DNA from: a virus
UHGV virus genome: UHGV-1554766
Strand: one strand, 5' to 3'
Length of the DNA: 11,272 nucleotides
The notes beneath the pieces are model-generated. The model saw only the letters and a list, made by a program, of their open reading frames with translations. It had not been told where the DNA came from and did not search any database. The position numbers were made by a program, and so were the translations under genes. Shown piece after piece: positions 1 through 11,198 of this stretch (the first letter of the stretch is position 1; every line of letters begins with the position of its first letter).

Positions 1-353
1 CGCTGGTCTTCATCAATGAATCCCATGCCTTTACGAACGGATTCAATCTGGTCTGGATATTGAGTAGCCAACTGACGCAAAGCACCGCGATCACCAGAAG
101 CATAAGCATTAGCGTATGCCTGCTGAAATTCTTTCTGCCGCTGAGCCTGCTTTTCCTGCTGAAACACCCCCGCAATACCTGAAAGGCCTTGCAAAGCAGT
201 CAGCCCAACATTGTTAGCGCCTGAACGCTCAATATCATTGTTCTGCCTGATAAGCTGAAGCGTATTGCCGATGTCATTTACGCTCGGAGCGTTTGAGTTG
301 ACGCCGCCGATACCAGCCAACAATCCGCCGTTTGTTCCTTGCCAAGTAGCCAT
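1..353 (-). CDS. DNA ejection protein, P22 gp20-like; 5' portion only (ATG at 353..351, gene continues beyond window start)
   Basis: Hand translation of the minus strand from ATG 353..351 is open to position 3 (117 codons, no stops): MATWQGTNGGLLAGIGGVNSNAPSV... Preceded by GGGG Shine-Dalgarno (taaGGGGTAATCatg) 9 nt after the gp7-like stop. Product assigned by position after gp7-like in the P22/Sf6 order (26-14-7-20), not by recognised sequence. Confidence 0.55.
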   Translation of the reverse strand, partial: MATWQGTNGGLLAGIGGVNSNAPSVNDIGNTLQLIRQNNDIERSGANNVGLTALQGLSGIAGVFQQEKQAQRQKEFQQAYANAYASGDRGALRQLATQYPDQIESVRKGMGFIDEDQ

Positions 354-362
354 GATTACCCC

Positions 363-1055
363 TTAAAACAACGAGCCAAGCAATCCGATACCAGCACCAA
401 TGCCAGCGCCCCAAGGCGTTGATGTTCCCAAAAGGCTGGCAAGACCTGCACCGGCAATCGCACCAGACGTGCCACCGCTAATTGCAGTCTGAAGACTTGA
501 TGGTTTGTTGGCATTAGCAGCGGCAAGAGCTGCGCTTTGCTGTGCAATGCTGCTCATGTTGTTGGCGTACGTCTGCCCGGCGTTTGCCTGACCTTGCAGA
601 GCACCAAGCCCAACGTTTGCCAGATTGTTGTAATTGCTCATCTGGTTTGATAACCAAGACTGACCGAGAGTCGGCGCGATCGTAGCCAGTTGATTGCTTG
701 TGGCTGTCGAACCAAGTCCACCCGTCGCCTCCGCAGCAGCGAGACTCTGGTAACGCGCCTGACCTGCAAGGTCTTTATACTGCTGAGAGTTGTAATACTG
801 ATTAAGTGCCTGCCCCTGACCTTCTAAACTGGAAAGGTTCTGAAGCTGGTTAACATACTGTTCCGCAAGAGGCGTGAACGGAGCAAGGTTTTTCATGATC
901 GTCTGCCACTGCTGATTTTGCAGGTCTGCTGCATACTTCTGAGCTTCTGCGGCATACTTTGCGCTTTTATCAGAACTGCCACCTTTCCCACCCTTTTCAG
1001 GGCAATAAGGTTCCTCGCCGCGCAGTTTTCTGCCCAGCTTAAATGCATATAACAT
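363..1055 (-). CDS. DNA ejection (injection) protein, P22 gp7-like, 230 aa
   Basis: ORF track 363..1055. Length close to P22 gp7 (about 229 aa as I recall). N-terminus MLYAFKLGRKLRGEEP...KGGKGG; C-terminal about 35 residues are Gly/Ala-rich and hydrophobic (GAIAGAGLASLLG...GAGIGAGIGLLGSLF). GGGAGA Shine-Dalgarno 5 nt upstream of ATG. Synteny after gp14-like. Confidence 0.75.
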   Translation of the reverse strand: MLYAFKLGRKLRGEEPYCPEKGGKGGSSDKSAKYAAEAQKYAADLQNQQWQTIMKNLAPFTPLAEQYVNQLQNLSSLEGQGQALNQYYNSQQYKDLAGQARYQSLAAAEATGGLGSTATSNQLATIAPTLGQSWLSNQMSNYNNLANVGLGALQGQANAGQTYANNMSSIAQQSAALAAANANKPSSLQTAISGGTSGAIAGAGLASLLGTSTPWGAGIGAGIGLLGSLF

Positions 1056-1057
1056 GG

Positions 1058-1513
1058 CTATCTCCCGTGATTCAGGAAGTCGATTAGTTCTTCGCGTGTG
1101 GCGCTGTAAAAAGTCACGTCATCCACGCCTTTGAAGTATTTCTTGATGGTTCCTACACGCTTAAGGCCAATCATTGCGCAGTACATCTGACCGTGGCGGA
1201 ATTTGCGTGCAGCGAACGATGTTACGCACTGAACGGTGGTGTTAGTCAGAATGTATCGCCAGAACGCCAGCCCGATTTCCTTGCTGAATCCACGAACCTC
1301 TGGCAGGTACATGGCGTGGCAATCGAATGTCAGCGGCTGAATCTCCTGATAGTAAACAATGCCGCCGAACTGCCCGTGCACGTTCACCTCAAAGTAACGG
1401 CAATCATGTTTATAGTCGTATCCATCACCGTTGTTGCTCCCGGCAATAATGTCAGGGTGATTTCCGACTGCTTCGATCAGGTCGATGTTTCGCGTTGGTT
1501 TGAACTGAATCAT
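1058..1513 (-). CDS. P22 gp14-like virion-associated protein, 151 aa (function poorly defined)
   Basis: ORF track 1058..1513. Start ATG overlaps the tail-needle stop by 1 nt (TAATG). Sits at the position of P22 gene 14 / Sf6 gene 10 between tail needle and gp7-like. Product name is by synteny only. Confidence 0.65.
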   Translation of the reverse strand: MIQFKPTRNIDLIEAVGNHPDIIAGSNNGDGYDYKHDCRYFEVNVHGQFGGIVYYQEIQPLTFDCHAMYLPEVRGFSKEIGLAFWRYILTNTTVQCVTSFAARKFRHGQMYCAMIGLKRVGTIKKYFKGVDDVTFYSATREELIDFLNHGR

Positions 1514-2361
1514 TACTGCTCCGCGATTATCTTGATGGTTGTTGCAGTAAACGCCGCACCATTCGACTGAATGGTTAACGTACTGCCATTTGTGGCAAGA
1601 AAGCCGTCTTTATCCACGCTGAAGAACGTAGCTAACAGGATGTTATCGGTTGTTGTCGCCGAGTTGCGACTGCTTACCAGTGTGTCAGGAACAGAGCCGG
1701 AAAAGGTTAGCTGCATTGATCTGTTGGCGGTTCCGCTGGGCCACGCCCCGACGATCGACAGCTTGAAGAACAAGGTTTTGTTCTCGTTGAACACAACCAT
1801 CTTGTTGTTAACGGTGTCGAAGAATGGTGCCAACGAGCCTGATGACGGCGTGAGCGTTTTCAGCAGGCTAACAAGGTTGGTCGGCGCTGTCGGGATGGTT
1901 ACAGATACGCCAGAGTAAACAACCTCTGACTTCTTGCGAGTAGTGGCATACTCCAGAGCATCGATGCGCGTTTCATGGTCTGAAACCTGCGACTCCAGCG
2001 ACTGAACTCTGGTATCAAGCGACGCAATATCGCTTTCATTCTGAGCGATTCGCGTTTCATGTTCCTGAAGAGTTGATTCTGCCTGGCTGATTCGCTCCTC
2101 ATGATTAACAAGCGTTGCTTCCGCAGCAGAAATTCGCTGCTCATGGTCAGCGAGAATCACATCCTGCTCATCGTTCCTGACTTGTGCGTCATAAGCACCC
2201 TGTCCGGCCTCGTTGGCTTTGTTCGCCACGTTACCAACATCAGTGCCCTGTGCGATAACGTAAAGCAGATACGACTGCGAGAAGATATTGCGTGGAAGGA
2301 CTGATGTGTCGAGCCGTGTAGCCTGAATGATTACCGGCACATTGAGATTCGAATCCGCCAT
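1513..2361 (-). CDS. Tail needle (cell-envelope penetrating plug) protein, P22 gp26-like with Sf6-type C-terminal knob, 282 aa
   Basis: N-terminal about 60 aa ([43 protein letters not shown]...NDEQDV) closely match my recollection of the P22 gp26 N-terminus. Central segment has HE-x-RI heptad-type repeats typical of a trimeric coiled coil. About 50 aa longer than P22 gp26 (233 aa as I recall), with a Ser/Thr/Asn-rich C-terminal domain. Start overlaps gp10-like stop (TAATG). Confidence 0.9.
1960..2150 (-). repeat. In-frame imperfect DNA repeats inside the tail-needle gene encoding HE(Q/E/T)RI coiled-coil motifs
   Basis: Plus-strand motif cg(c/t)g(t/c)t(t/c)catg(g/a)t recurs near 1967, 2050, 2096 and 2137. 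Spacing of about 42, 46 and 83 nt matches the protein motifs DHEQRIS, NHEERIS, EHETRIA and DHETRID. Confidence 0.5.
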
Positions 2362-3779
2362 TACTCAATCCTTATCTGGCAGCCAGACAGAGTGACAGGT
2401 GACTTCGTGATAACGCGCAATTTGAAGCCAATGTTTTTCCTGATGCGCCCTACTCTCTTCCACAAAACGCGTTTGTCGTAAACGAACGGTTCATTCTGCT
2501 CAATCATCTGCTCACGGCCGTAATTGATGCCGTCAGTTGTAGCAGAGAGGAACAGGCGGTCAGCGTACTGCGCAACACCAGTTGACGATTCAACTTCAAG
2601 GTCAAACACTCTTGCGTTATCCGCTTTGAACAATGGAGTAAACAGCAGGTGTTCCTGTTGCTTGTCGTACTGGCTGCTGATATCGAACTGCAGTTTCCCG
2701 GTCACGGACTCCAGTTTATCGCCGCACGTTATCTGATTGCCTTCGTAAATGAAGTCGATAGCGCGGTACACATCGTCATACAGGCCTGTTTTCAGCACAC
2801 ACCATTGCGGACCATTAGCGCTTGAAGATGCGTCATACACTAGGACGTGGCGCGGCAGGTGGATAATCAGCAACTCATGAGCATCAAAGCGCAACGATTC
2901 CATCACGCCATCAGCCAGTTCATCAGCAGTGTAGGAGCGGAGGATTTTCTCAATGCTCGCGCTGGCAATTGGTGACACCTGACCGGAGCCGATGATATAC
3001 ACAGACGGCGCACCCGTTGCCGGATTGCTGATGAACGCATACGAATCAGCAAACGGCGTTTTGCAGTAAGTCCCGGCAATACCTTTCTGCACCATCAATG
3101 ATGGCTGTGCGACATACAAAGCGGCACCAACGGTGGTTGCCCCCGTCAGGGAGAAATATTCAATCGTCGATGAACCAAAGCAGACGATGAAGTCTCGCCA
3201 TGTTCCGATGCCGATGATGCCGTCAGGCTGAGACTCAGCACGATATTGTGCGCTGTAACGGTCAGGATGCGATTCGTCTTCAAGGTCAGTGATAAACCAT
3301 GAATCAGTTCCGTCTTTTGACCACGCATAACGCCCACGTAAGCGCGTAATGTCACGAACCGAACCTAACTCATACTGCGTGAATCCGCTGTCTGTAGGCC
3401 AGTTTGAGACGGTTTTAACCGTGCCATCATAGCGATACTCGACCAGTTGACCATTAACGCCTACAGCCTGAGATGTCCGACCATGCGCCATTGATACGCG
3501 ACCACTTCCGGCGACGTCACCGACTTCACTTTCTCCTTTGTACAGTTTGCCACCACACACGCGATAAACAGCATTCTGCGCCATGTTGTACTCGACGCCT
3601 CGTGATACACCGTTCACATCAGAACGTTTGGCAATGCCCGGGAATGAGCGAAGATATCCGCTGCTGTTCAGGATTTCTTTGGGTGTAGCCAACATATTCA
3701 CTGGCAGATAGTCGATATAGTCGGCGTTTCGAAAGTCTTTGCCGACACCTTTCATAAGCGGAAGTTGCTGAATCGGCAT
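2361..3779 (-). CDS. Tail accessory factor / head completion protein, P22 gp10-like, 472 aa
   Basis: ORF track 2361..3779. Length identical to P22 gp10 as I recall it (472 aa). Lies between gp4-like and the tail needle as in P22 (4-10-26). GGTGA Shine-Dalgarno upstream of ATG, 9 nt after the gp4-like stop. Confidence 0.85.
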
Positions 3780-3788
3780 TTATTCACC

Positions 3789-4250
3789 TCACGTACTCGG
3801 ATCATCTTTCTCGATGTAAAACCGATTCCACGTAAACGCGCTTTTGTTACCACTACCGCGAGGCATGTCATTTCGCCGCTCAAGTGGTGGTATTTTGGTT
3901 AAAGCGATGCAAATTGTCTGGTATGCACTGTCAGCAGCGGTAAGGAGAACGTCTGACGGCTGAATGACGTTATCCATGCACACTTGCACAGCGAGTTTCA
4001 AGGCGACGCCATCATTTGCCCATGCAGGGATACCTGAATCATCGTCAGGTAACGGCATGATGCCGTTTTCTGTATCAGCAAACTGATATCCAAGCTCGAT
4101 ACCTTTAGCCTGCCATGCTGCCATCATGTCTTCGAGGTCATTAATGGCATCTTCAATTGCCTGAGGGTCAGCATCTGTCAACGTGGCATTGGAATACAGC
4201 CCAGCTTTTCGTAAAGCCTTTAGAACGAGATCACCCTTCGTTTTCGCCAT
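3789..4250 (-). CDS. Tail accessory factor / head completion protein, P22 gp4-like, 153 aa
   Basis: N-terminus MAKTKGDLVLKALRKAGLYSNATLTDADPQAIEDAINDLEDMMAAW resembles the P22 gp4 N-terminus as I recall it (..KTKGDLV..ALRKLG..ATLTD..PQ...DA.DDLEAMMAEW). Size close to P22 gp4 (about 166 aa). Synteny. Confidence 0.85.
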   Translation of the reverse strand: MAKTKGDLVLKALRKAGLYSNATLTDADPQAIEDAINDLEDMMAAWQAKGIELGYQFADTENGIMPLPDDDSGIPAWANDGVALKLAVQVCMDNVIQPSDVLLTAADSAYQTICIALTKIPPLERRNDMPRGSGNKSAFTWNRFYIEKDDPST

Positions 4251-4419
4251 CTTCTTCCGCCTTAGCCACTTTTTGCTTCGTTGCGGTTTCTTCAGGAGTT
4301 TTTACCCAACCTTTTTTCAGGTGAGATTTAACTTCTTCGTCATCAACAATGATGTAATCGACAGCAAACTGACCACAGGTGATCATGTTGCCAGGCTTAT
4401 AGAGCATTGTTCGTGCCAT
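4231..4419 (-). CDS. Small hypothetical protein, 62 aa, at the position of Sf6 gene 6 (between coat and gp4-like)
   Basis: The track ORF 4231..4458 starts inside the terminator hairpin. The internal ATG at 4419..4417 has a well-spaced Shine-Dalgarno (GGGAGAAGACAatg) and gives MARTMLYKPGNMITCGQFAVDYIIVDDEEVKSHLKKGWVKTPEETATKQKVAKAEEDGENEG. Its 3' end overlaps the gp4-like start by 20 nt in another frame. Confidence 0.5.
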   Translation of the reverse strand: MARTMLYKPGNMITCGQFAVDYIIVDDEEVKSHLKKGWVKTPEETATKQKVAKAEEDGENEG

Positions 4420-4430
4420 TGTCTTCTCCC

Positions 4431-4454
4431 AATAAAAATGGGGCCGAAGCCCCA
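4431..4454 (-). terminator. Rho-independent terminator directly downstream of the coat gene
   Basis: Plus strand 4439..4454 tggggc-cgaa-gcccca forms a perfect 6-bp GC-rich stem with a 4-nt loop (UUCG on the minus-strand transcript). On the minus strand it is followed by TTTTTATT (4438..4431). It begins 7 nt after the coat stop codon. Confidence 0.7.
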
Positions 4455-4460
4455 CCAAAA

Positions 4461-5714
4461 TTACTGCCCGGCAATAACGATGCCCGTATATTCAGGAACC
4501 AGTACAGAGCAACCGTACAGAGTGGTGAAACGTGCAGTGGTTACGCCTTTGATGTGGTCGAAGGCGTAAGACATGATCAGCGTAGCGCCCTGCTCGGTGG
4601 TTGCTGTCATTACCTGTGGCCCCTGACCAGTCGGGAATGCCAGTTTGCCGTACATCAGTTCAACAGAACCATCAGCCCAGAATAGGTTAGCCGGTGCTGC
4701 GTTCTTGTTGAGAATGGTGATTGCTGCTGATTCTGCCGGTTTGGCATCGACGTTTGCATATGGACGACTCGCAACATCAGTATTTTCAACAGGGAGAATC
4801 TTTGGAGAAATTGTTACGGTAGTTCCGCTAACAGCCAGAACACGGAATACCTGCGGTTGACCGGTGGTATCTTTTGTGATCTGGTGTACGGAATTCACAC
4901 CGGCAATGGTGAACGCATCACCAACCTGCAAGCCAGATGCAGATACCGTAATAGTCCCCTGTCGGTTATCAACTGGCATACCATTTGAATCTTTCGCTTC
5001 AACCTTGTGTTCAGGTTGGCCTGATACTGTCAAGGATTCAGTGCTTCCTTTCGGTAATCGACCAGAAATATCGGTCTTGTAGCTATCAAAGGACGCAACC
5101 GGAGGGATCTGCGCTTTTTCGTATGCTGTCAGGGTTGCGCCCTGAGCATAGGCACGGTGACCAAGCTCGCCAGCAAGGTCTTTGTAGTTGAAGGGGTTCC
5201 AGAAAGAGCGGCGGTTGATACCCTGTGGTACACCAATCGCCGTCATGGTGGCATCAATACCTGCCGCACAGTTCCACAAATCACGGCCCTGTGAACCAGT
5301 GGTTGAGTCAGCCATTGTGATCACGTTAGTAGCACGCTGCGTGACCATGGAAATCAGGTCAGAGTCAATCTGTGCAGCAAGGCGCATACCTGCGGCTCGA
5401 CCAGCTTCAGTTTTATGTTCCGGGTCACGCATTTCACGCGCATCCAGAGTGTACAGAATGTTTTTCGGCTCCTTGAACACAGAAGGAACAAGGCGCTGAA
5501 CCAGTGCTGTAGGCGTTTTGCCGCTGAGATCGAGGCCTTCTTCAATGTTCATGTGGTAATGCTGCGGACGATACAGAACATCACCTGCTCGCTGCATTGC
5601 TGTATCACCGGGACGGAATTTTTTAGCGTTACGGGAAACTACGCAGGCGGCCTCAAAGCCTTCAACGTAGTTTTCGAACATGATTTCAAGGTCTTTTGCT
5701 AATTGGTTAGCCAT
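4461..5714 (-). CDS. Major capsid (coat) protein, P22 gp5-like, 417 aa
   Basis: ORF track 4461..5714. Size near P22 coat (430 aa). C-terminal segment RPYANVDAKPAESAAITILNKNAAPANLFWADGSVEL resembles P22 coat [37 protein letters not shown] as I recall it. Directly downstream of scaffold as in P22 (8-5). GGAG Shine-Dalgarno upstream; strong terminator after the stop. Confidence 0.9.
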   Translation of the reverse strand: MANQLAKDLEIMFENYVEGFEAACVVSRNAKKFRPGDTAMQRAGDVLYRPQHYHMNIEEGLDLSGKTPTALVQRLVPSVFKEPKNILYTLDAREMRDPEHKTEAGRAAGMRLAAQIDSDLISMVTQRATNVITMADSTTGSQGRDLWNCAAGIDATMTAIGVPQGINRRSFWNPFNYKDLAGELGHRAYAQGATLTAYEKAQIPPVASFDSYKTDISGRLPKGSTESLTVSGQPEHKVEAKDSNGMPVDNRQGTITVSASGLQVGDAFTIAGVNSVHQITKDTTGQPQVFRVLAVSGTTVTISPKILPVENTDVASRPYANVDAKPAESAAITILNKNAAPANLFWADGSVELMYGKLAFPTGQGPQVMTATTEQGATLIMSYAFDHIKGVTTARFTTLYGCSVLVPEYTGIVIAGQ

Positions 5715-5732
5715 GCTTAATGCTCCGATAGG

Positions 5733-6626
5733 TTATTTTTTTGCCTTTTTAGCGGCGAAATACGGCGTCCAGTCACCAGTTTCCAGCGCCTTGGCTTTCA
5801 ATTTGTCGAGGTTGTTGATTACTGCGCCGTTGCTCCCCTTAACTGTCGGGGTTGTGGCTGCCGTGGTTTTTGCTTTTGGCATGATTCTGGCCTTCGATTC
5901 GATACGTTCCAGCAGACGACCAATTGCTACGGGGTTGGTAGCTTCTGCCAGTTGCTTGCGCAGTTCAGCGTTGCGACCGAGTGCCAGAACAACGATTTCC
6001 GGCTTCTCTGACTCAAACAGGATCGCGTTTTGTGTCTCGATGGGGATTTCCTCGAGTACGGCCTGTTCTGCTTCCTGATAGCCAGGAACCTTGAGAGCCT
6101 TAACACGTTGCTGATATTTGGATAATCGCTCTTGATAAGCAGCCTGAAGCTCCTGCTCCTTCTGCTTGCGAGCCATCTCCTGTTGCTGGTACTTTCCGTT
6201 ATCCTCTGCCCACTTAGCCATGCGTTGCTGATAGATTTCTTCATCGAAACCGATGTCCTCATCATCCAGTTTTGGCATTCGCGGTGGTTGAGTGATTACC
6301 GGCTGCTGCTCGACGGGTTTCTGAGACTGACGCATCAGCTCTTTCAGCTCGCGGTCTTTCTCTTTAATCGTCTTGCGAAGGTGTTTTACCAGTCCATGCT
6401 CTGCGCCATCTTCGCTGGTTGGCGAATCCAGCTTTTCGTCACCAAAGTAGAATTCCTGTTCTGATTCGTCGTCATCAGTTTCAGTAGCTTCCTCTGCATC
6501 ATTGCCGGAGGACTCACTGCCATCTTCTGTTTCGACTTCTTCAGCCAGTTCGACATCATCAGGAATCTGCTCTGACGCGTCGGTTTCGATTTCAACTTCT
6601 GGTGTGTTTTCTGCCATCTGGTCCAT
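5733..6626 (-). CDS. Scaffolding protein, P22 gp8-like, 297 aa
   Basis: ORF track 5733..6626. Very acidic N-terminal third (D/E-rich), charged central helical region (QQEMARKQKEQELQAAYQERLSKYQQRVKALK) and basic C-terminus (KLKAKALETGDWTPYFAAKKAKK), consistent with a coat-binding C-terminal helix-turn-helix. Size near P22 gp8 (303 aa). Between portal and coat. AGGGG Shine-Dalgarno 6 nt upstream of ATG. Confidence 0.85.
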   Translation of the reverse strand: MDQMAENTPEVEIETDASEQIPDDVELAEEVETEDGSESSGNDAEEATETDDDESEQEFYFGDEKLDSPTSEDGAEHGLVKHLRKTIKEKDRELKELMRQSQKPVEQQPVITQPPRMPKLDDEDIGFDEEIYQQRMAKWAEDNGKYQQQEMARKQKEQELQAAYQERLSKYQQRVKALKVPGYQEAEQAVLEEIPIETQNAILFESEKPEIVVLALGRNAELRKQLAEATNPVAIGRLLERIESKARIMPKAKTTAATTPTVKGSNGAVINNLDKLKAKALETGDWTPYFAAKKAKK

Positions 6627-6716
6627 TTGTTACCCCTGTTTACTCGATGTTCAGCCCATCGGAAGGCAATAGGGTGCCAGGCCTCATAAAGACAGCCATT
6701 GCACGTTATGGGTTAA

Positions 6717-8915
6717 TTACTGCTGTGGTTGTTGCTGAGTTGATTTTTGCAGGATGCTGCTGATGTCCATGCGCTGCGCATGACCCTGTGCCTGACTTTT
6801 CAGGACAAGCTCTGCATCAGCACGGGCATTGTCTCCTTGCTGTTGCTGGAACTGTCCGAGCAGTTTCAGAGCCTCGCGGATATCAGATTTCTGCTGGCTA
6901 TCGGCAGATGCGAGGATTTTCACAACATTTGCCGCTGCAACCTGAGCATCAGTCTGTGCCTGGAATGCTTTAACCTGAATGGCTGCCTGTTCGTTCTGCG
7001 CTTTCTGCAATTCAGCCTGACCAGCAAGAAGCTGACCTTGCGCTGCAACCATAGCCGGATCTGGCTGACTGGCCTGTTGTTGTTTCGCCTGCTCAACCAT
7101 TTGCTGTTCTTCTGGTGTTCTCGGCTTGATAACCCCAGACAGAAGCAACTGATTGCGGTTGTATTCTTTAAGGTCGTCCATCCCTTCGCCGTCCATATTG
7201 TCGAGAATCATCGACGATACAAGGTCGTGTTTCGGCGTTCCTGGCGGGATAAGTGCCAGCATGGAAAGTAACGACTTAACCGTTGCATCACGGCGAGTAG
7301 CGAACGACTGACCGACATCGACAGTCACTTCATAGTTACCCTGCGAAAGGTCATTAAGCGCGATAACCCGCCCTGTCTGACGGTCAACCACTTCACCAGT
7401 CATCAGCGCCACGTCATCGCTGCCGTCCTCATTAACGATACGCATCGGCGTATCACTGCCATAGACTTCACGAGCCATAGAAAGCCACACGACGCCAGCA
7501 CGGCGCATGGATTTAGCCATGTTGTCCATGTAGATATAGGACTGCGTGTCCATCCGGTTAAAGATGCTATCAACGGTATCGGTAGCGACGTTGCTCGGCA
7601 TGTTCTCAAGCTGCGACGCACCTGTAATTTGCTGAATAGCCGTTCCGGTGTACTGCAATAGCCCGGCAAGAGCAGGAGGCATTTGTGTCGGAGGTGTCCA
7701 GCCAGCAACCTGAGCCTCTGAAATGACCGTTCCGTTTTTGTCCTTCTTGCTGGTCATAGGAAGAACTGCAGGTCTTTTCTTATTCCTCTCTGCCCAGTGA
7801 TTCATTAATGGACCGGGAATGAAATCAACATCCACGATAGGAATGCCATCACCGCCCGCCTGAGTAGCGTTATCTGCAATCATGGAAACCATCAGGTTCT
7901 CAAGACGCTGTGCATCCATCGCTTTTGCTGCGTGGCCTTCGATTCGCTCCTGATTATCAACAAATGAACGACGCCCATATACCGGGATGAGAGGAATATG
8001 TTCGCCAGGAATACGCTTCGGTTCTTCCAGCCATTCAGCGCCAGACAGAAGACCGCAATAAACTCTGCGTTTCTTCACTGTCCGCTCACCAATCAGTTCG
8101 AATGCGCCATCGGTCAGCTCGTCGACAATATCTTTGATTTGCTCTTCATCATAGATTGCCGTTTCTCCGCTAACAGGGTTGCGCCATGCCGTGAGCTTCA
8201 CCTTCTCTATGCGAACTTCGTAGTAGCGACCAACATAGATAGCATCAGGGGTTGACCAGTCATATTGAGTGCCAGTGTCATCACGAGAAAGGCTTGCCGC
8301 GATGGAATCAGGGTATTCAGCCTCGAACGCTTTAGGCGTCATGGAGAACATTTCCATAGCCCACATAGCATCAGAGCGGTCATATTGCTTGCTGTCCTGA
8401 TCGAAGAAGACGCATGTGGCCGGGTCGTAAACAGGAAGAAGGCTGATGCGTCGCTGCTCGTTACTTGGGTCCATTTCATCTTCGTAATCGGCACACATGC
8501 GGAAACAACCGAATCCGCCCGTTACAGCATCATCAAATGCGTTATCACACGCTTCGCCACCGGATGTTTCCTGATAGTCAGCGCGGAATTTGCCGTTCAT
8601 CTTTTCGGCTAACGCTTCCGATGCCTTATCGTCCTTCGGCCTGAATTTAACGCTGATGCGATTCTGTCGATACTCGCCAATGATGCGATCACATTCACGG
8701 GCAATCTTATTCAGTTCAAAGCGCGGGTAATGCTCAAACCTTCCTTCATCAAATGAGTAACCAGCGTTTGTGCTGCCTTCCCACTGTGCGCCGGACACCC
8801 GGACGAAACGTTGAGCCTCAATAATCTGCTCACGCATATCCTGCGTTGCTGACCAGGCATTATCAAAGTTGCACAGCACCTTGCGATGCCAGTCAGTCAT
8901 CTTTTTTTCTGCCAT
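6717..8915 (-). CDS. Portal protein, P22 gp1-like, 732 aa, with C-terminal Gln-rich helical barrel
   Basis: Several segments match P22 portal as I recall it: GEHIPLIPVYG versus GEHIPIVPVFG, and KPRTPEEQQMVEQAKQQQASQPDPAMVAAQGQLLAGQAELQKAQNEQ versus [47 protein letters not shown]. Size near P22 gp1 (725 aa). Start is 1 nt after the large terminase stop. Confidence 0.95.
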   Translation of the reverse strand: MAEKKMTDWHRKVLCNFDNAWSATQDMREQIIEAQRFVRVSGAQWEGSTNAGYSFDEGRFEHYPRFELNKIARECDRIIGEYRQNRISVKFRPKDDKASEALAEKMNGKFRADYQETSGGEACDNAFDDAVTGGFGCFRMCADYEDEMDPSNEQRRISLLPVYDPATCVFFDQDSKQYDRSDAMWAMEMFSMTPKAFEAEYPDSIAASLSRDDTGTQYDWSTPDAIYVGRYYEVRIEKVKLTAWRNPVSGETAIYDEEQIKDIVDELTDGAFELIGERTVKKRRVYCGLLSGAEWLEEPKRIPGEHIPLIPVYGRRSFVDNQERIEGHAAKAMDAQRLENLMVSMIADNATQAGGDGIPIVDVDFIPGPLMNHWAERNKKRPAVLPMTSKKDKNGTVISEAQVAGWTPPTQMPPALAGLLQYTGTAIQQITGASQLENMPSNVATDTVDSIFNRMDTQSYIYMDNMAKSMRRAGVVWLSMAREVYGSDTPMRIVNEDGSDDVALMTGEVVDRQTGRVIALNDLSQGNYEVTVDVGQSFATRRDATVKSLLSMLALIPPGTPKHDLVSSMILDNMDGEGMDDLKEYNRNQLLLSGVIKPRTPEEQQMVEQAKQQQASQPDPAMVAAQGQLLAGQAELQKAQNEQAAIQVKAFQAQTDAQVAAANVVKILASADSQQKSDIREALKLLGQFQQQQGDNARADAELVLKSQAQGHAQRMDISSILQKSTQQQPQQ

Positions 8916-8916
8916 A

Positions 8917-10332
8917 TCAACCTACACCACAAGGAATTGAGTAACTGGAATAGTCGGGTTGCGCAGCCGACTCCGGGCAATGCATACACATCATCAGCGC
9001 ATCAGCCAGGTTAGGAGATGGAATACCGAGCTTCTGCTTCATTTCGACCTTAGTCATTAGCTCCAGCTTCCCGTTGTTATTGAATTTGCGCTGAATCTGC
9101 GTCAGTTCTGCAAACAGCTTCTCCAGCATCTTCTCGCCTATCGCTTCTTTGTCGAAACTCAGCATGTCGTCGGGGTCTGCATACTCACCGTGAACAACCG
9201 CCCGATATGTCAGATACAGCCTGTCAGCCAGCGCGTAATAGAATTGCGCTCGCTTATTGCGGAACACATCGCCAATAGTGCGAACGTTGTCGCCCTGTAC
9301 GACTTCATCAGCCCATGCCCCGGCCTGATACGGCGCATCTTCATCGAATGGCGATTCGCTACCCTTGAACATCGTGGCGGTGATTTTCTTGCCGGAGAAC
9401 GCTTCCGTTGTCTGTCTGCGTAGCCCAGCACCAACACCATCACCATCCCACAGGTAATGGTCAGCGCCGTCTTCAATCGCCAGCGAAGTAGCCCAGTCAG
9501 CACCCTCGTTGATGTCCATCAGCAGACCTTCGGCAATGCGCTTAACCACCGAACCGTGACGCGATGCGTAACCTTTAGCATCTGGCCCTGTATCTGACGG
9601 GTCATGTGCAGAAACAACCGCGCCTTTCGCTTTCCATCCGAGTTTCTTGTGCGCATCGGTTGCGGCTTCAAGCCATTCACGTTTGATGATTGCCATATCA
9701 CTTGCGCTTACTGGCTCACCAAGCCAGATGTGACGATACAGTGTCGGGTTTCTGCGTTTACACTCTTCCATCTCCAGACGGAGAACTTCAGGAAAGTGCG
9801 GGTTGTCGGTGTAGTTCACCGTCAGCAGACAAATATCATCGGGAGGATTTACGACGAATCGCTGATAGGTATCGTCGAGGATGTTTTTTGGGTTAAAGCT
9901 CACCCATATTTCAGAGAACGGCTTACGGATGGTTGGTATCAGGATATCCCATGATTCCTTCGTTACCGCTTCCGCTTCTTCCACCCAGCAGATATCAATG
10001 CCTTCGAGCGATTTAATCTTCGTCGGGTTGTTTTTGATGCCGTAGAACATGAATTCAGCATTCGTTCCGAGATGACGAATCATTGAACGCTGAATTTCAA
10101 ACTCAGCCGAATACCCTTCACGCTCTATGGTGTCTTCAAGCAACCGGATTACCGAATCGCTGATACTGTTTTGCAGTTCACGAGCGCAGAGAATACGCAC
10201 AGGCTGCCGACGCGCCGCTTCAACAAGCAGCCTCGCAATTGCCCATGACTTACCGCTACCTCGACCGCCTTTGGCGACTTTGTAGCGATGCGCCTCAATG
10301 AACGGTTCAAAGATAGGATTAATCGAGGTCAT
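8917..10332 (-). CDS. terL: Terminase large subunit (ATPase/nuclease), Sf6 gp2-like, 471 aa
   Basis: N-terminal Walker A P-loop (VAKGGRGSGKSWA). Size matches Sf6 gp2 (about 470 aa as I recall). Acidic C-terminal half consistent with an RNase H-like nuclease domain. Start overlaps small terminase stop (ATGA). Immediately upstream of portal. Confidence 0.93.
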   Translation of the reverse strand: MTSINPIFEPFIEAHRYKVAKGGRGSGKSWAIARLLVEAARRQPVRILCARELQNSISDSVIRLLEDTIEREGYSAEFEIQRSMIRHLGTNAEFMFYGIKNNPTKIKSLEGIDICWVEEAEAVTKESWDILIPTIRKPFSEIWVSFNPKNILDDTYQRFVVNPPDDICLLTVNYTDNPHFPEVLRLEMEECKRRNPTLYRHIWLGEPVSASDMAIIKREWLEAATDAHKKLGWKAKGAVVSAHDPSDTGPDAKGYASRHGSVVKRIAEGLLMDINEGADWATSLAIEDGADHYLWDGDGVGAGLRRQTTEAFSGKKITATMFKGSESPFDEDAPYQAGAWADEVVQGDNVRTIGDVFRNKRAQFYYALADRLYLTYRAVVHGEYADPDDMLSFDKEAIGEKMLEKLFAELTQIQRKFNNNGKLELMTKVEMKQKLGIPSPNLADALMMCMHCPESAAQPDYSSYSIPCGVG

Positions 10333-10751
10333 TTTCCGAATAGAGTGCTCATCGGTGATGTTTCAATCTGAATTGCGCCGCCGTCCTTACCGACAAGCTC
10401 GTTAGTTACCTTGTCGCCATACTTACGGGGATTCATTCGGGCCAGCGCCCATTTGCGGGTATCAACGCGAAGTCTTGCCTTTGCCACCTCAGCAGCATCT
10501 GGAATCGCATTGTCAGCAATTTCGAATATCTCTTCGAAAATAGAATCAGCTCGTGCCTCAGTTGCCTTCGCGTACTTGTCGCGAAAATCCTCATGCTTTG
10601 CCAACCAGCGGAAAACAGTGGACTTATCCGGCATACCAGGACGCTTACATACTTTCAGCAAACTTTCGCCAGAAGAAAGCAACGAGCAGATATCGTCAGC
10701 CACCTCCGGCATATAATCAGAGGGGCGACCAGCTTTTGGTTCAGTCGCCAT
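10329..10751 (-). CDS. terS: Terminase small subunit, Sf6 gp1-like, 140 aa from ATG 10751 (alternative in-frame ATG at 10757 gives 142 aa)
   Basis: Sequence MATEPKAGRPSDYMPEVADDICSLLSSGESLLKVCKRPGMPDKSTVFRWLAKHEDFRDKYAKATEARADSIFEEIFEIADN matches my recollection of Sf6 gp1 (140 aa, helix-turn-helix DNA-binding domain). The second ATG has better Shine-Dalgarno spacing (GAG about 8 nt upstream). 4-nt overlap with terL. Confidence 0.88.
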   Translation of the reverse strand: MATEPKAGRPSDYMPEVADDICSLLSSGESLLKVCKRPGMPDKSTVFRWLAKHEDFRDKYAKATEARADSIFEEIFEIADNAIPDAAEVAKARLRVDTRKWALARMNPRKYGDKVTNELVGKDGGAIQIETSPMSTLFGK

Positions 10752-10774
10752 ATTCATCTCACTTAATTGTCATT

Positions 10775-10954
10775 TCAGGCTGAGGACTCTTTCGCGCCTT
10801 CAATCAGTGACTGCTTCAGTAATTCGAGTGTACCAATCGCCTCGCATAAACTGATTTCACCATCGTAATCATGGATGACGCTTTCCAGTCGCTCGTATAG
10901 CTCTTGAGTAATTGGGAATTTCTTCTCCTTACCCAAATTGATTACGCGGCTCAC
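10775..10954 (-). CDS. Possible small ORF, 59 codons, GTG-initiated, hypothetical protein (may correspond to the small ORF that precedes gene 3 in P22-like phages)
   Basis: Hand translation: GTG at 10954..10952 preceded by GGAG with a 6-nt spacer (ccGGAGcatgatGTG); open to TGA at 10777..10775. Product (M/V)SRVINLGKEKKFPITQELYERLESVIHDYDGEISLCEAIGTLELLKQSLIEGAKESSA. Start region overlaps the stop of the upstream 80-aa ORF. Below the ORF-track length cutoff and has a non-ATG start, so uncertain. Confidence 0.3.
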   Translation of the reverse strand: MSRVINLGKEKKFPITQELYERLESVIHDYDGEISLCEAIGTLELLKQSLIEGAKESSA

Positions 10955-10955
10955 A

Positions 10956-11198
10956 TCATGCTCCGGTGGTGAACAGGTCTAACGCTTCCTTCGATTTACG
11001 CACCGCTTCGATAGTGCGGGTCGTGATATCTGAATTAGCGCCACCTGACTGGAAGTGAATTTTGAATAGCTCAAGCTTCAGCTCGTCAGTGCCAATGAAT
11101 TGAAATGCTTCTTCTGCGGCTGCGTTCTGGTTCATGACCAGTTTGTAAATCTCTAACTGGAATTTCTGTTCTTCAGTCATGGGAATAATCTCTGCCAT
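10956..11198 (-). CDS. Hypothetical 80-aa protein upstream of the terminase genes (size and position reminiscent of P22 orf80)
   Basis: ORF track 10956..11198. GGAG Shine-Dalgarno 6 nt upstream of ATG (acGGAGccaacaATG). Same strand as the operon. Function unknown. Confidence 0.55.
   Translation of the reverse strand: MAEIIPMTEEQKFQLEIYKLVMNQNAAAEEAFQFIGTDELKLELFKIHFQSGGANSDITTRTIEAVRKSKEALDLFTTGA

Follow-up and report, generated by a model that had tools for sequence, protein, structure and literature searches.

The window, by which the whole analysed stretch of 11,272 nucleotides from the virus genome UHGV-1554766 is meant, carries genes of a P22-like late (virion-assembly) operon (Table 1). 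All late-operon genes of the window lie on the minus strand, and the window together with an identical metagenome contig gives the gene order gp4, gp10, needle, gp14, gp7, gp20, gp16 and tailspike. The annotation of the gp10-type hub agrees with that of the orthologues in Sf6, HK620 and phiKp_30, and its Pfam match was found on the identical contig. The tail needle gene is flanked by the genes for the gp10 hub and for gp14, which is the position of a P22-like needle, and the order gp10, needle, gp14 is the same in Sf6 and HK620. At both ends of the needle gene TAATG stop/start overlaps are present on the minus strand, one at 2359-2363 (gp10 stop and needle start) and one at 1511-1515 (needle stop and gp14 start), an arrangement that would fit translational coupling within the late operon. 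The whole window contains four sigma-70-like promoter matches versus 11.2 ± 3.0 expected from shuffled sequence, and this deficit would fit a long late operon transcribed from one upstream promoter. A terminator-like hairpin is found on the minus strand at 4437-4456 (GGTGGGGC-TTCG-GCCCCATT, then a T-run). It is strong, with an 8-bp stem comprising 5 G-C pairs, and lies directly after the stop of the coat gene, where the annotations of Sf6 and HK620 have the terminator 't coat' or 'tGP5'. Scanned against Rfam, the window as a whole matched no family.

Table 1 Genes of the window and predicted parts of the tail needle protein
Feature	Position	Strand	Remarks
gp7	363..1055	minus	late operon; the gp20 gene begins where the window ends
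gp14-like DUF2824 gene	1058..1513	minus	directly downstream of the needle gene
Tail needle gene	1513..2361	minus	from the ORF list; 282 codons plus stop
C-terminal knob, predicted Sf6-type TNF-like jellyroll	1516..1944	minus	residues 140-282; matches to 3RWN and 4K6B, PF16532
Predicted trimeric coiled-coil shaft	1945..2142	minus	residues 74-139; heptads with recurring 'HExRI' motifs
N-terminal block with predicted plug docking in the gp10 tail hub	2143..2361	minus	residues 1-73; common to knobless needles
gp10-type tail hub ('packaged DNA stabilization protein gp10')	2361..3779	minus	ORF; PF11134; orthologue annotations
gp4	3789..4250	minus	late operon
Coat	4461..5714	minus	late operon; small ORF between coat and gp4
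Scaffold	5733..6626	minus	late operon
Portal	6717..8915	minus	late operon
Large terminase	8917..10332	minus	late operon
Small terminase	10329..10757	minus	P22-like late (virion-assembly) operon

The predicted product of the needle gene is an orthologue of the products of Sf6 gene 9 and P22 gene 26. Over its full length the gene shows 96.3% nucleotide identity to Sf6 gene 9, and among the PHROGs the protein is assigned to phrog_1030 ('tail needle knob', E 5.9e-135). Chains of P22 gp26 match residues 1-137 and 1-144 with E values from 1e-46 to 8e-44, and 8EAP covers residues 3-64. The original prediction had described the N-terminal plug and the coiled-coil shaft as gp26-like, and the matches over residues 1-144 bear this out. 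In a single-sequence AlphaFold2 model a helix extends over residues 42-142 with pLDDT >90. The matches, the predicted helix and the heptads together give the architecture of a P22-like needle, namely an N-terminal gp10-binding plug followed by a coiled-coil shaft. The shaft is the short variant of Sf6 length. Tandem Repeats Finder detected no DNA-level repeat in 1400..2500, so the periodicity of the 'HExRI' heptads exists at the protein level only. In the N-terminal block all codon differences from Sf6 (8/8) are synonymous.

Codon 140 begins at 1944 and the final sense codon ends at 1516, so that the interval behind the shaft comprises 143 aa. It very probably represents the knob at the C-terminus of a tail needle of the Sf6 type, from a temperate P22-like phage (Lederbergvirus) in the Escherichia/Shigella group, and no observation speaks against this identification. 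Residues 130-282 align without gaps to the knob of Sf6 gp9 (PDB 3RWN, E 1.7e-89) as well as to the knob of the E. coli HS prophage HS1 (PDB 4K6B, E 5.2e-89), a similarity far above chance expectation. Within residues 140-282 there are three substitutions in comparison to 3RWN and two in comparison to 4K6B, which makes the knob about 98% identical to both crystal structures. The Pfam family PF16532 (Phage_tail_NK, 'Sf6-type phage tail needle knob'), which has a curated gathering cut-off of 27 bits, is matched with 386.5 bits by residues 108-282 over the complete profile (1-175/175), and the other Pfam matches of the needle protein are weak coiled-coil noise. From the close identity to the two solved structures we infer a TNF-like jellyroll fold for the domain. 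AlphaFold2, run with the single sequence of the full-length protein, gave pLDDT <50 for the knob; the fold therefore rests on homology to the crystal structures and was not independently reproduced. The matches to 3RWN, 4K6B, PF16532 and phrog_1030 agree with the earlier proposal of a beta-rich C-terminal knob of about 140 residues and assign the ~143 aa to the Sf6 type.

The residues known to contact ligands in Sf6 are retained as well. All four L-glutamate-contact residues (E146, K200, S248 and D250 in Sf6 numbering) are present at the same positions, and the phosphate triad of the distal tip (S231-R232-N233, Sf6 numbering) is also found in the knob of the window. The L-glutamate contacts are conserved in all known homologues, including distant ones which are not P22-like (PMC3741392), and the S-R-N triad is conserved among the knobs of P22-like phages (Leavitt et al. 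2013, PMC3741392). The knob of phiKp_30 has D233 in place of N233 in this triad.

Two ORFs on the plus strand run under the knob (1571..1918 and 1193..1570) and were rejected as chance ORFs. The probability that the first of them, with 115 aa, is the true gene and the knob an out-of-frame artefact is practically negligible. Its one point of support is an entry in a mechanical ORF list, whereas translation of the minus strand yields matches to two crystal structures (E ~1e-89) and to a curated Pfam family, and the late-operon genes are without exception encoded on the minus strand. Furthermore, 15 knob codons differ from Sf6, and 12 of these differences are synonymous and three non-synonymous. 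This bias marks the minus-strand frame as the coding frame and indicates purifying selection on the knob codons. The peptide quoted in the original prediction occurs verbatim in the minus-strand ORF of the needle.

It had also been predicted that the needle carries an extra C-terminal domain absent from P22 gp26, and this is what the alignments give. The P22 gp26 chains (2POH, 3C9I, 4LIN, 4ZKP, 4ZXQ and 8EAP) align within residues 1-144 only, whereas 3RWN and 4K6B match residues 130-282. When a tip of the P22/HK620 type (gp26 residues ~141-233) was sought in the C-terminus of the needle, no P22 or HK620 chain aligned past query residue 145, and the alignment to the needles of HK620 and Sf101 fails beyond the plug. 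The assumption that both Sf6- and HK620-type needles carry knobs holds for Sf6 but not for HK620, which has a 233-aa P22-type needle (PDB 5BU5). HK620 gp26 is the very protein of this PDB entry (E 6.4e-145, 233/233 residues); from residue 68 to residue 233 it aligns to the tip of P22 gp26. A sequence of the Escherichia phage Dewey (PQ850600.1, 1501-2202) was considered as a second knob type and rejected, since it encodes a 233-aa knobless needle of the HK620 type. The label 'tail needle knob' of this CDS is an annotation error, probably inherited from the automatic family name.

The borders of the domain were compared with those of related needle genes. In comparison to Sf101 (212 aa) and HK620 (233 aa), both phages with a knobless needle, nucleotide homology extends from gp10 into the needle gene and ends at about window position 2141, i.e. 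at codon 74. It restarts exactly at the needle stop and the gp14 start (1513-1515), and the shaft of the window's needle has no nucleotide homology to the shafts of Sf101 or HK620. Breaks at about codon 74 and at the stop mean that the swapped unit is the shaft plus the knob (residues ~74-282) and not the knob alone. A recombination breakpoint at the knob boundary, as had been envisaged, is not supported by the comparison to the knobless needles, which break at about residue 74 instead. In comparison to the phage Gally, high nucleotide identity returns at gene position 402 (about codon 134, window ~1960), which places a second junction a few codons upstream of residue 140. Judged from these alignments the mosaic junctions in the needle gene are real. 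The expectation that the knob domain is exchangeable is supported both by these natural junctions and by engineered P22 chimeras (PMC3741392).

Mosaicism is also seen elsewhere in the window. The part from 1 to 3789 (gp10, needle, gp14 and gp7) is Sf6-like with 95.6% nucleotide identity, and the part from 3789 to 8500 (gp4, coat, scaffold and most of the portal) resembles Sf6 and HK620 little or not at all at the nucleotide level. The genes of the latter part are of the Sf101/CUS-3/phiKp_30 type, so the window as a whole is mosaic. The region 10417-10958, which comprises the 5' portion of the small-terminase gene together with neighbouring sequence, is absent from the otherwise closest phage, phiKp_30. 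It matches Sf101, Sf6 and HK620 and therefore marks a further mosaic junction.

Needle genes with 96-97% identity over the full length exist in the phages N7, phiKp_30, Sf6, Louie and Kapi1. Among 5,426 complete E. coli genomes, 469 contain the needle gene, covered over at least 80% of its length, under the PGAP name 'tail needle knob protein', and 349 complete E. coli genomes cover 80% or more of the whole window, the highest identity being 97.1%. The best nucleotide identity of the needle gene is 98.1% in the complete E. coli genomes and 96.9% in phage records. An exact copy of the gene was found in neither of these two collections but only on metagenome contigs. Two ENA metagenome contigs are 100% identical to the window and run on beyond it with gp20, gp16, an Mnt/Arc-like repressor, the tailspike and gtr-like O-antigen modification genes.

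The phage phiKp_30 (LC768498.2), which matches 95% of the window with 95.5% identity and carries a knob needle, is listed as a Klebsiella pneumoniae phage. This label is at odds with a survey from 2013, in which knob needles of P22-like phages were found in Escherichia/Shigella only and in none of 48 Salmonella phages (PMC3741392), so that the host assignment deserves a check. For the metagenome-derived phage of the window itself, a host outside Escherichia/Shigella, or an altered tip function due to knob substitutions such as S176, is very improbable. The knob of the window has S176 and the other four knobs compared have T at this position. If true, such a host would break the reported genus restriction of knob-bearing P22-like phages; neither the host nor an altered tip function would change the identity of the domain.

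A mechanism for the needle can be drawn from published work on Sf6, HS1 and P22, while the sequence of the window gives the identity of the protein and its contact residues. The 282-aa needle protein would trimerise, and residues 1 to ~60-73 would form the plug in the gp10 tail hub that holds the packaged DNA in the virion. It is established that the N-terminus of the needle plugs the channel of the gp10 hub, and cryo-EM of the Sf6 tail shows the needle and its interface with the hub (PMC9728967). Residues ~61-139 would constitute a trimeric coiled-coil shaft which projects past the tailspikes, and this position suggests that the needle makes the first contact with the outer membrane. The Sf6-type knob has a TNF-like fold and binds three L-glutamates as well as a phosphate at its distal end (PMC3741392). 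Residues 140-282 would correspondingly form a TNF-like jellyroll trimer, in which each subunit interface would hold one L-glutamate and the distal tip a phosphate. The tailspikes would digest the O-antigen and bring the needle tip to the outer membrane; the needle would then be released and the channel opened to the ejection proteins and the DNA. The knob would not set the host species, and the nature of the tip would affect the speed of DNA delivery.

Whether the knob could instead be a receptor-binding domain which helps to set host specificity, for example by recognising an outer-membrane component of Escherichia/Shigella, has to be weighed against this mechanism. The knob is the most distal part of the tail and belongs to the same fold class as the receptor-binding knobs of adenovirus and PRD1 (PMC3741392). 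Its restriction to phages of Escherichia/Shigella in the 2013 survey, with none in the 48 Salmonella phages (PMC3741392), would also agree with such a role, as would the fact that the close matches are all from these two genera apart from the one record labelled as a Klebsiella phage. However, P22 derivatives with the Sf6 knob plus two-thirds of the Sf6 shaft, or with the HS1 knob alone, plate and grow normally on Salmonella (PMC3741392), from which it follows that the knob confers no species specificity. Moreover, a specificity determinant is expected to vary, whereas the knob is almost invariant (139/143 to 140/143 identical residues) despite differing shafts, head genes and tailspikes. In addition, the expansion of the Sf6 host range maps to the tailspike according to PMC9400499. 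Receptor binding as a determinant of specificity is therefore improbable. Among P22-like phages the knobs diverge by no more than 4.9% (PMC3741392), and those of the needles compared here by about 2-3%. This small variation and the P22 chimeras contradict the original prediction, which saw in the specific knob type the most likely host-interaction variable. The real dichotomy is between the knob and the P22-type tip, and 'knob type' is not a variable.

Somewhat more probable, although still doubtful, is the idea that the knob acts mainly as a trimerisation or stability cap for the coiled-coil needle and has no specific contact role in infection. In P22 constructs a foldon tip can stand in for the natural tip (PMC3741392), and one conserved plug is combined with either of two unrelated tips, the knob or that of the P22 type. 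Mutants of the L-glutamate contacts, too, give roughly normal phage yields without an evident phenotype (PMC3741392). On the other hand, several tip changes slow the release of potassium, which points to a role of the tip in the kinetics of DNA delivery; these effects were measured in P22 chimeras on Salmonella and not in a native knob-bearing phage (PMC3741392). The conservation of the L-glutamate contacts even in distant homologues (PMC3741392), together with the excess of synonymous differences among the knob codons, argues for more than a generic cap. A tip which influences the speed of DNA delivery without setting the host species is the preferred reading of the knob.

The main host determinant, the tailspike, is located outside the window. 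On the identical metagenome contig it comprises 576 aa (15848-17578), and only its residues 1-118, the N-terminal head-binding domain, match the solved tailspikes of P22 and Sf6. The receptor-binding part is ~62% identical to proteins of the Shigella boydii type 1 phages Ag3 and MK-13. Two convergent gtr-like glycosyltransferase genes follow the tailspike gene (contig 17611-19960), which suggests O-antigen serotype conversion.

The knob itself is already known with respect to sequence, structure, family assignment and routine annotation. The Sf6-type knob has been crystallised twice, a cryo-EM map gives its place in the Sf6 tail, it has its own Pfam family and it is routinely named by PGAP. 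The significance of the locus past its correct annotation is accordingly small, and the knob should not be treated as a predictor of host range. Useful for reading the knob are the corrections that HK620 is not knob-bearing and that the natural unit of exchange is the shaft together with the knob, from about residue 74 to the stop.

Among the known needles, Sf6 gp9 also has 282 aa and shares 276 of 282 residues with the protein of the window without any indels. The six substitutions (window residue first) are S92R, E100D, A113S, S176T, A206T and A270S, the last three of them inside the knob. Plug, short shaft, knob and ligand-contact residues are common to both needles, whereas the head genes differ, with portal, scaffold, coat and gp4 of the window being of the Sf101/CUS-3 type. 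The crystal structure of the Sf6 knob (PDB 3RWN) is that of Bhardwaj et al. 2011, as cited in PMC9728967. Like the HS1 needle, that of the phage Gally has a length of 317 aa; it is identical to the needle of the window at 139/143 positions of the knob and 72/73 of the plug. Its shaft shows 45/66 identical residues over the common part and possesses 35 extra residues. The shafts of HS1 and Gally are thus longer than that of the window by 35 residues or five heptads, and 11 heptads were counted in Sf6 versus 16 in HS1 (PMC3741392). P22 gp26 and HK620 gp26 (2POH, 3C9I and 5BU5) possess a homologous plug and a shaft that is likewise a coiled coil (residues 1-144, E ~1e-44) and have the same gene position and plugging role as the needle of the window. 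With 233 aa they end in a P22-type tip, however, and are devoid of the PF16532 knob. Outside this group, the TNF-like fibre knobs of adenovirus and of the phage PRD1 (P5) are trimeric jellyrolls like the Sf6-type knob (PMC3741392, PMC9728967). The likeness, as described in the literature, is at the level of the fold only: receptor binding is proven for the knobs of adenovirus and PRD1, whereas for the Sf6-type knob no receptor is known.
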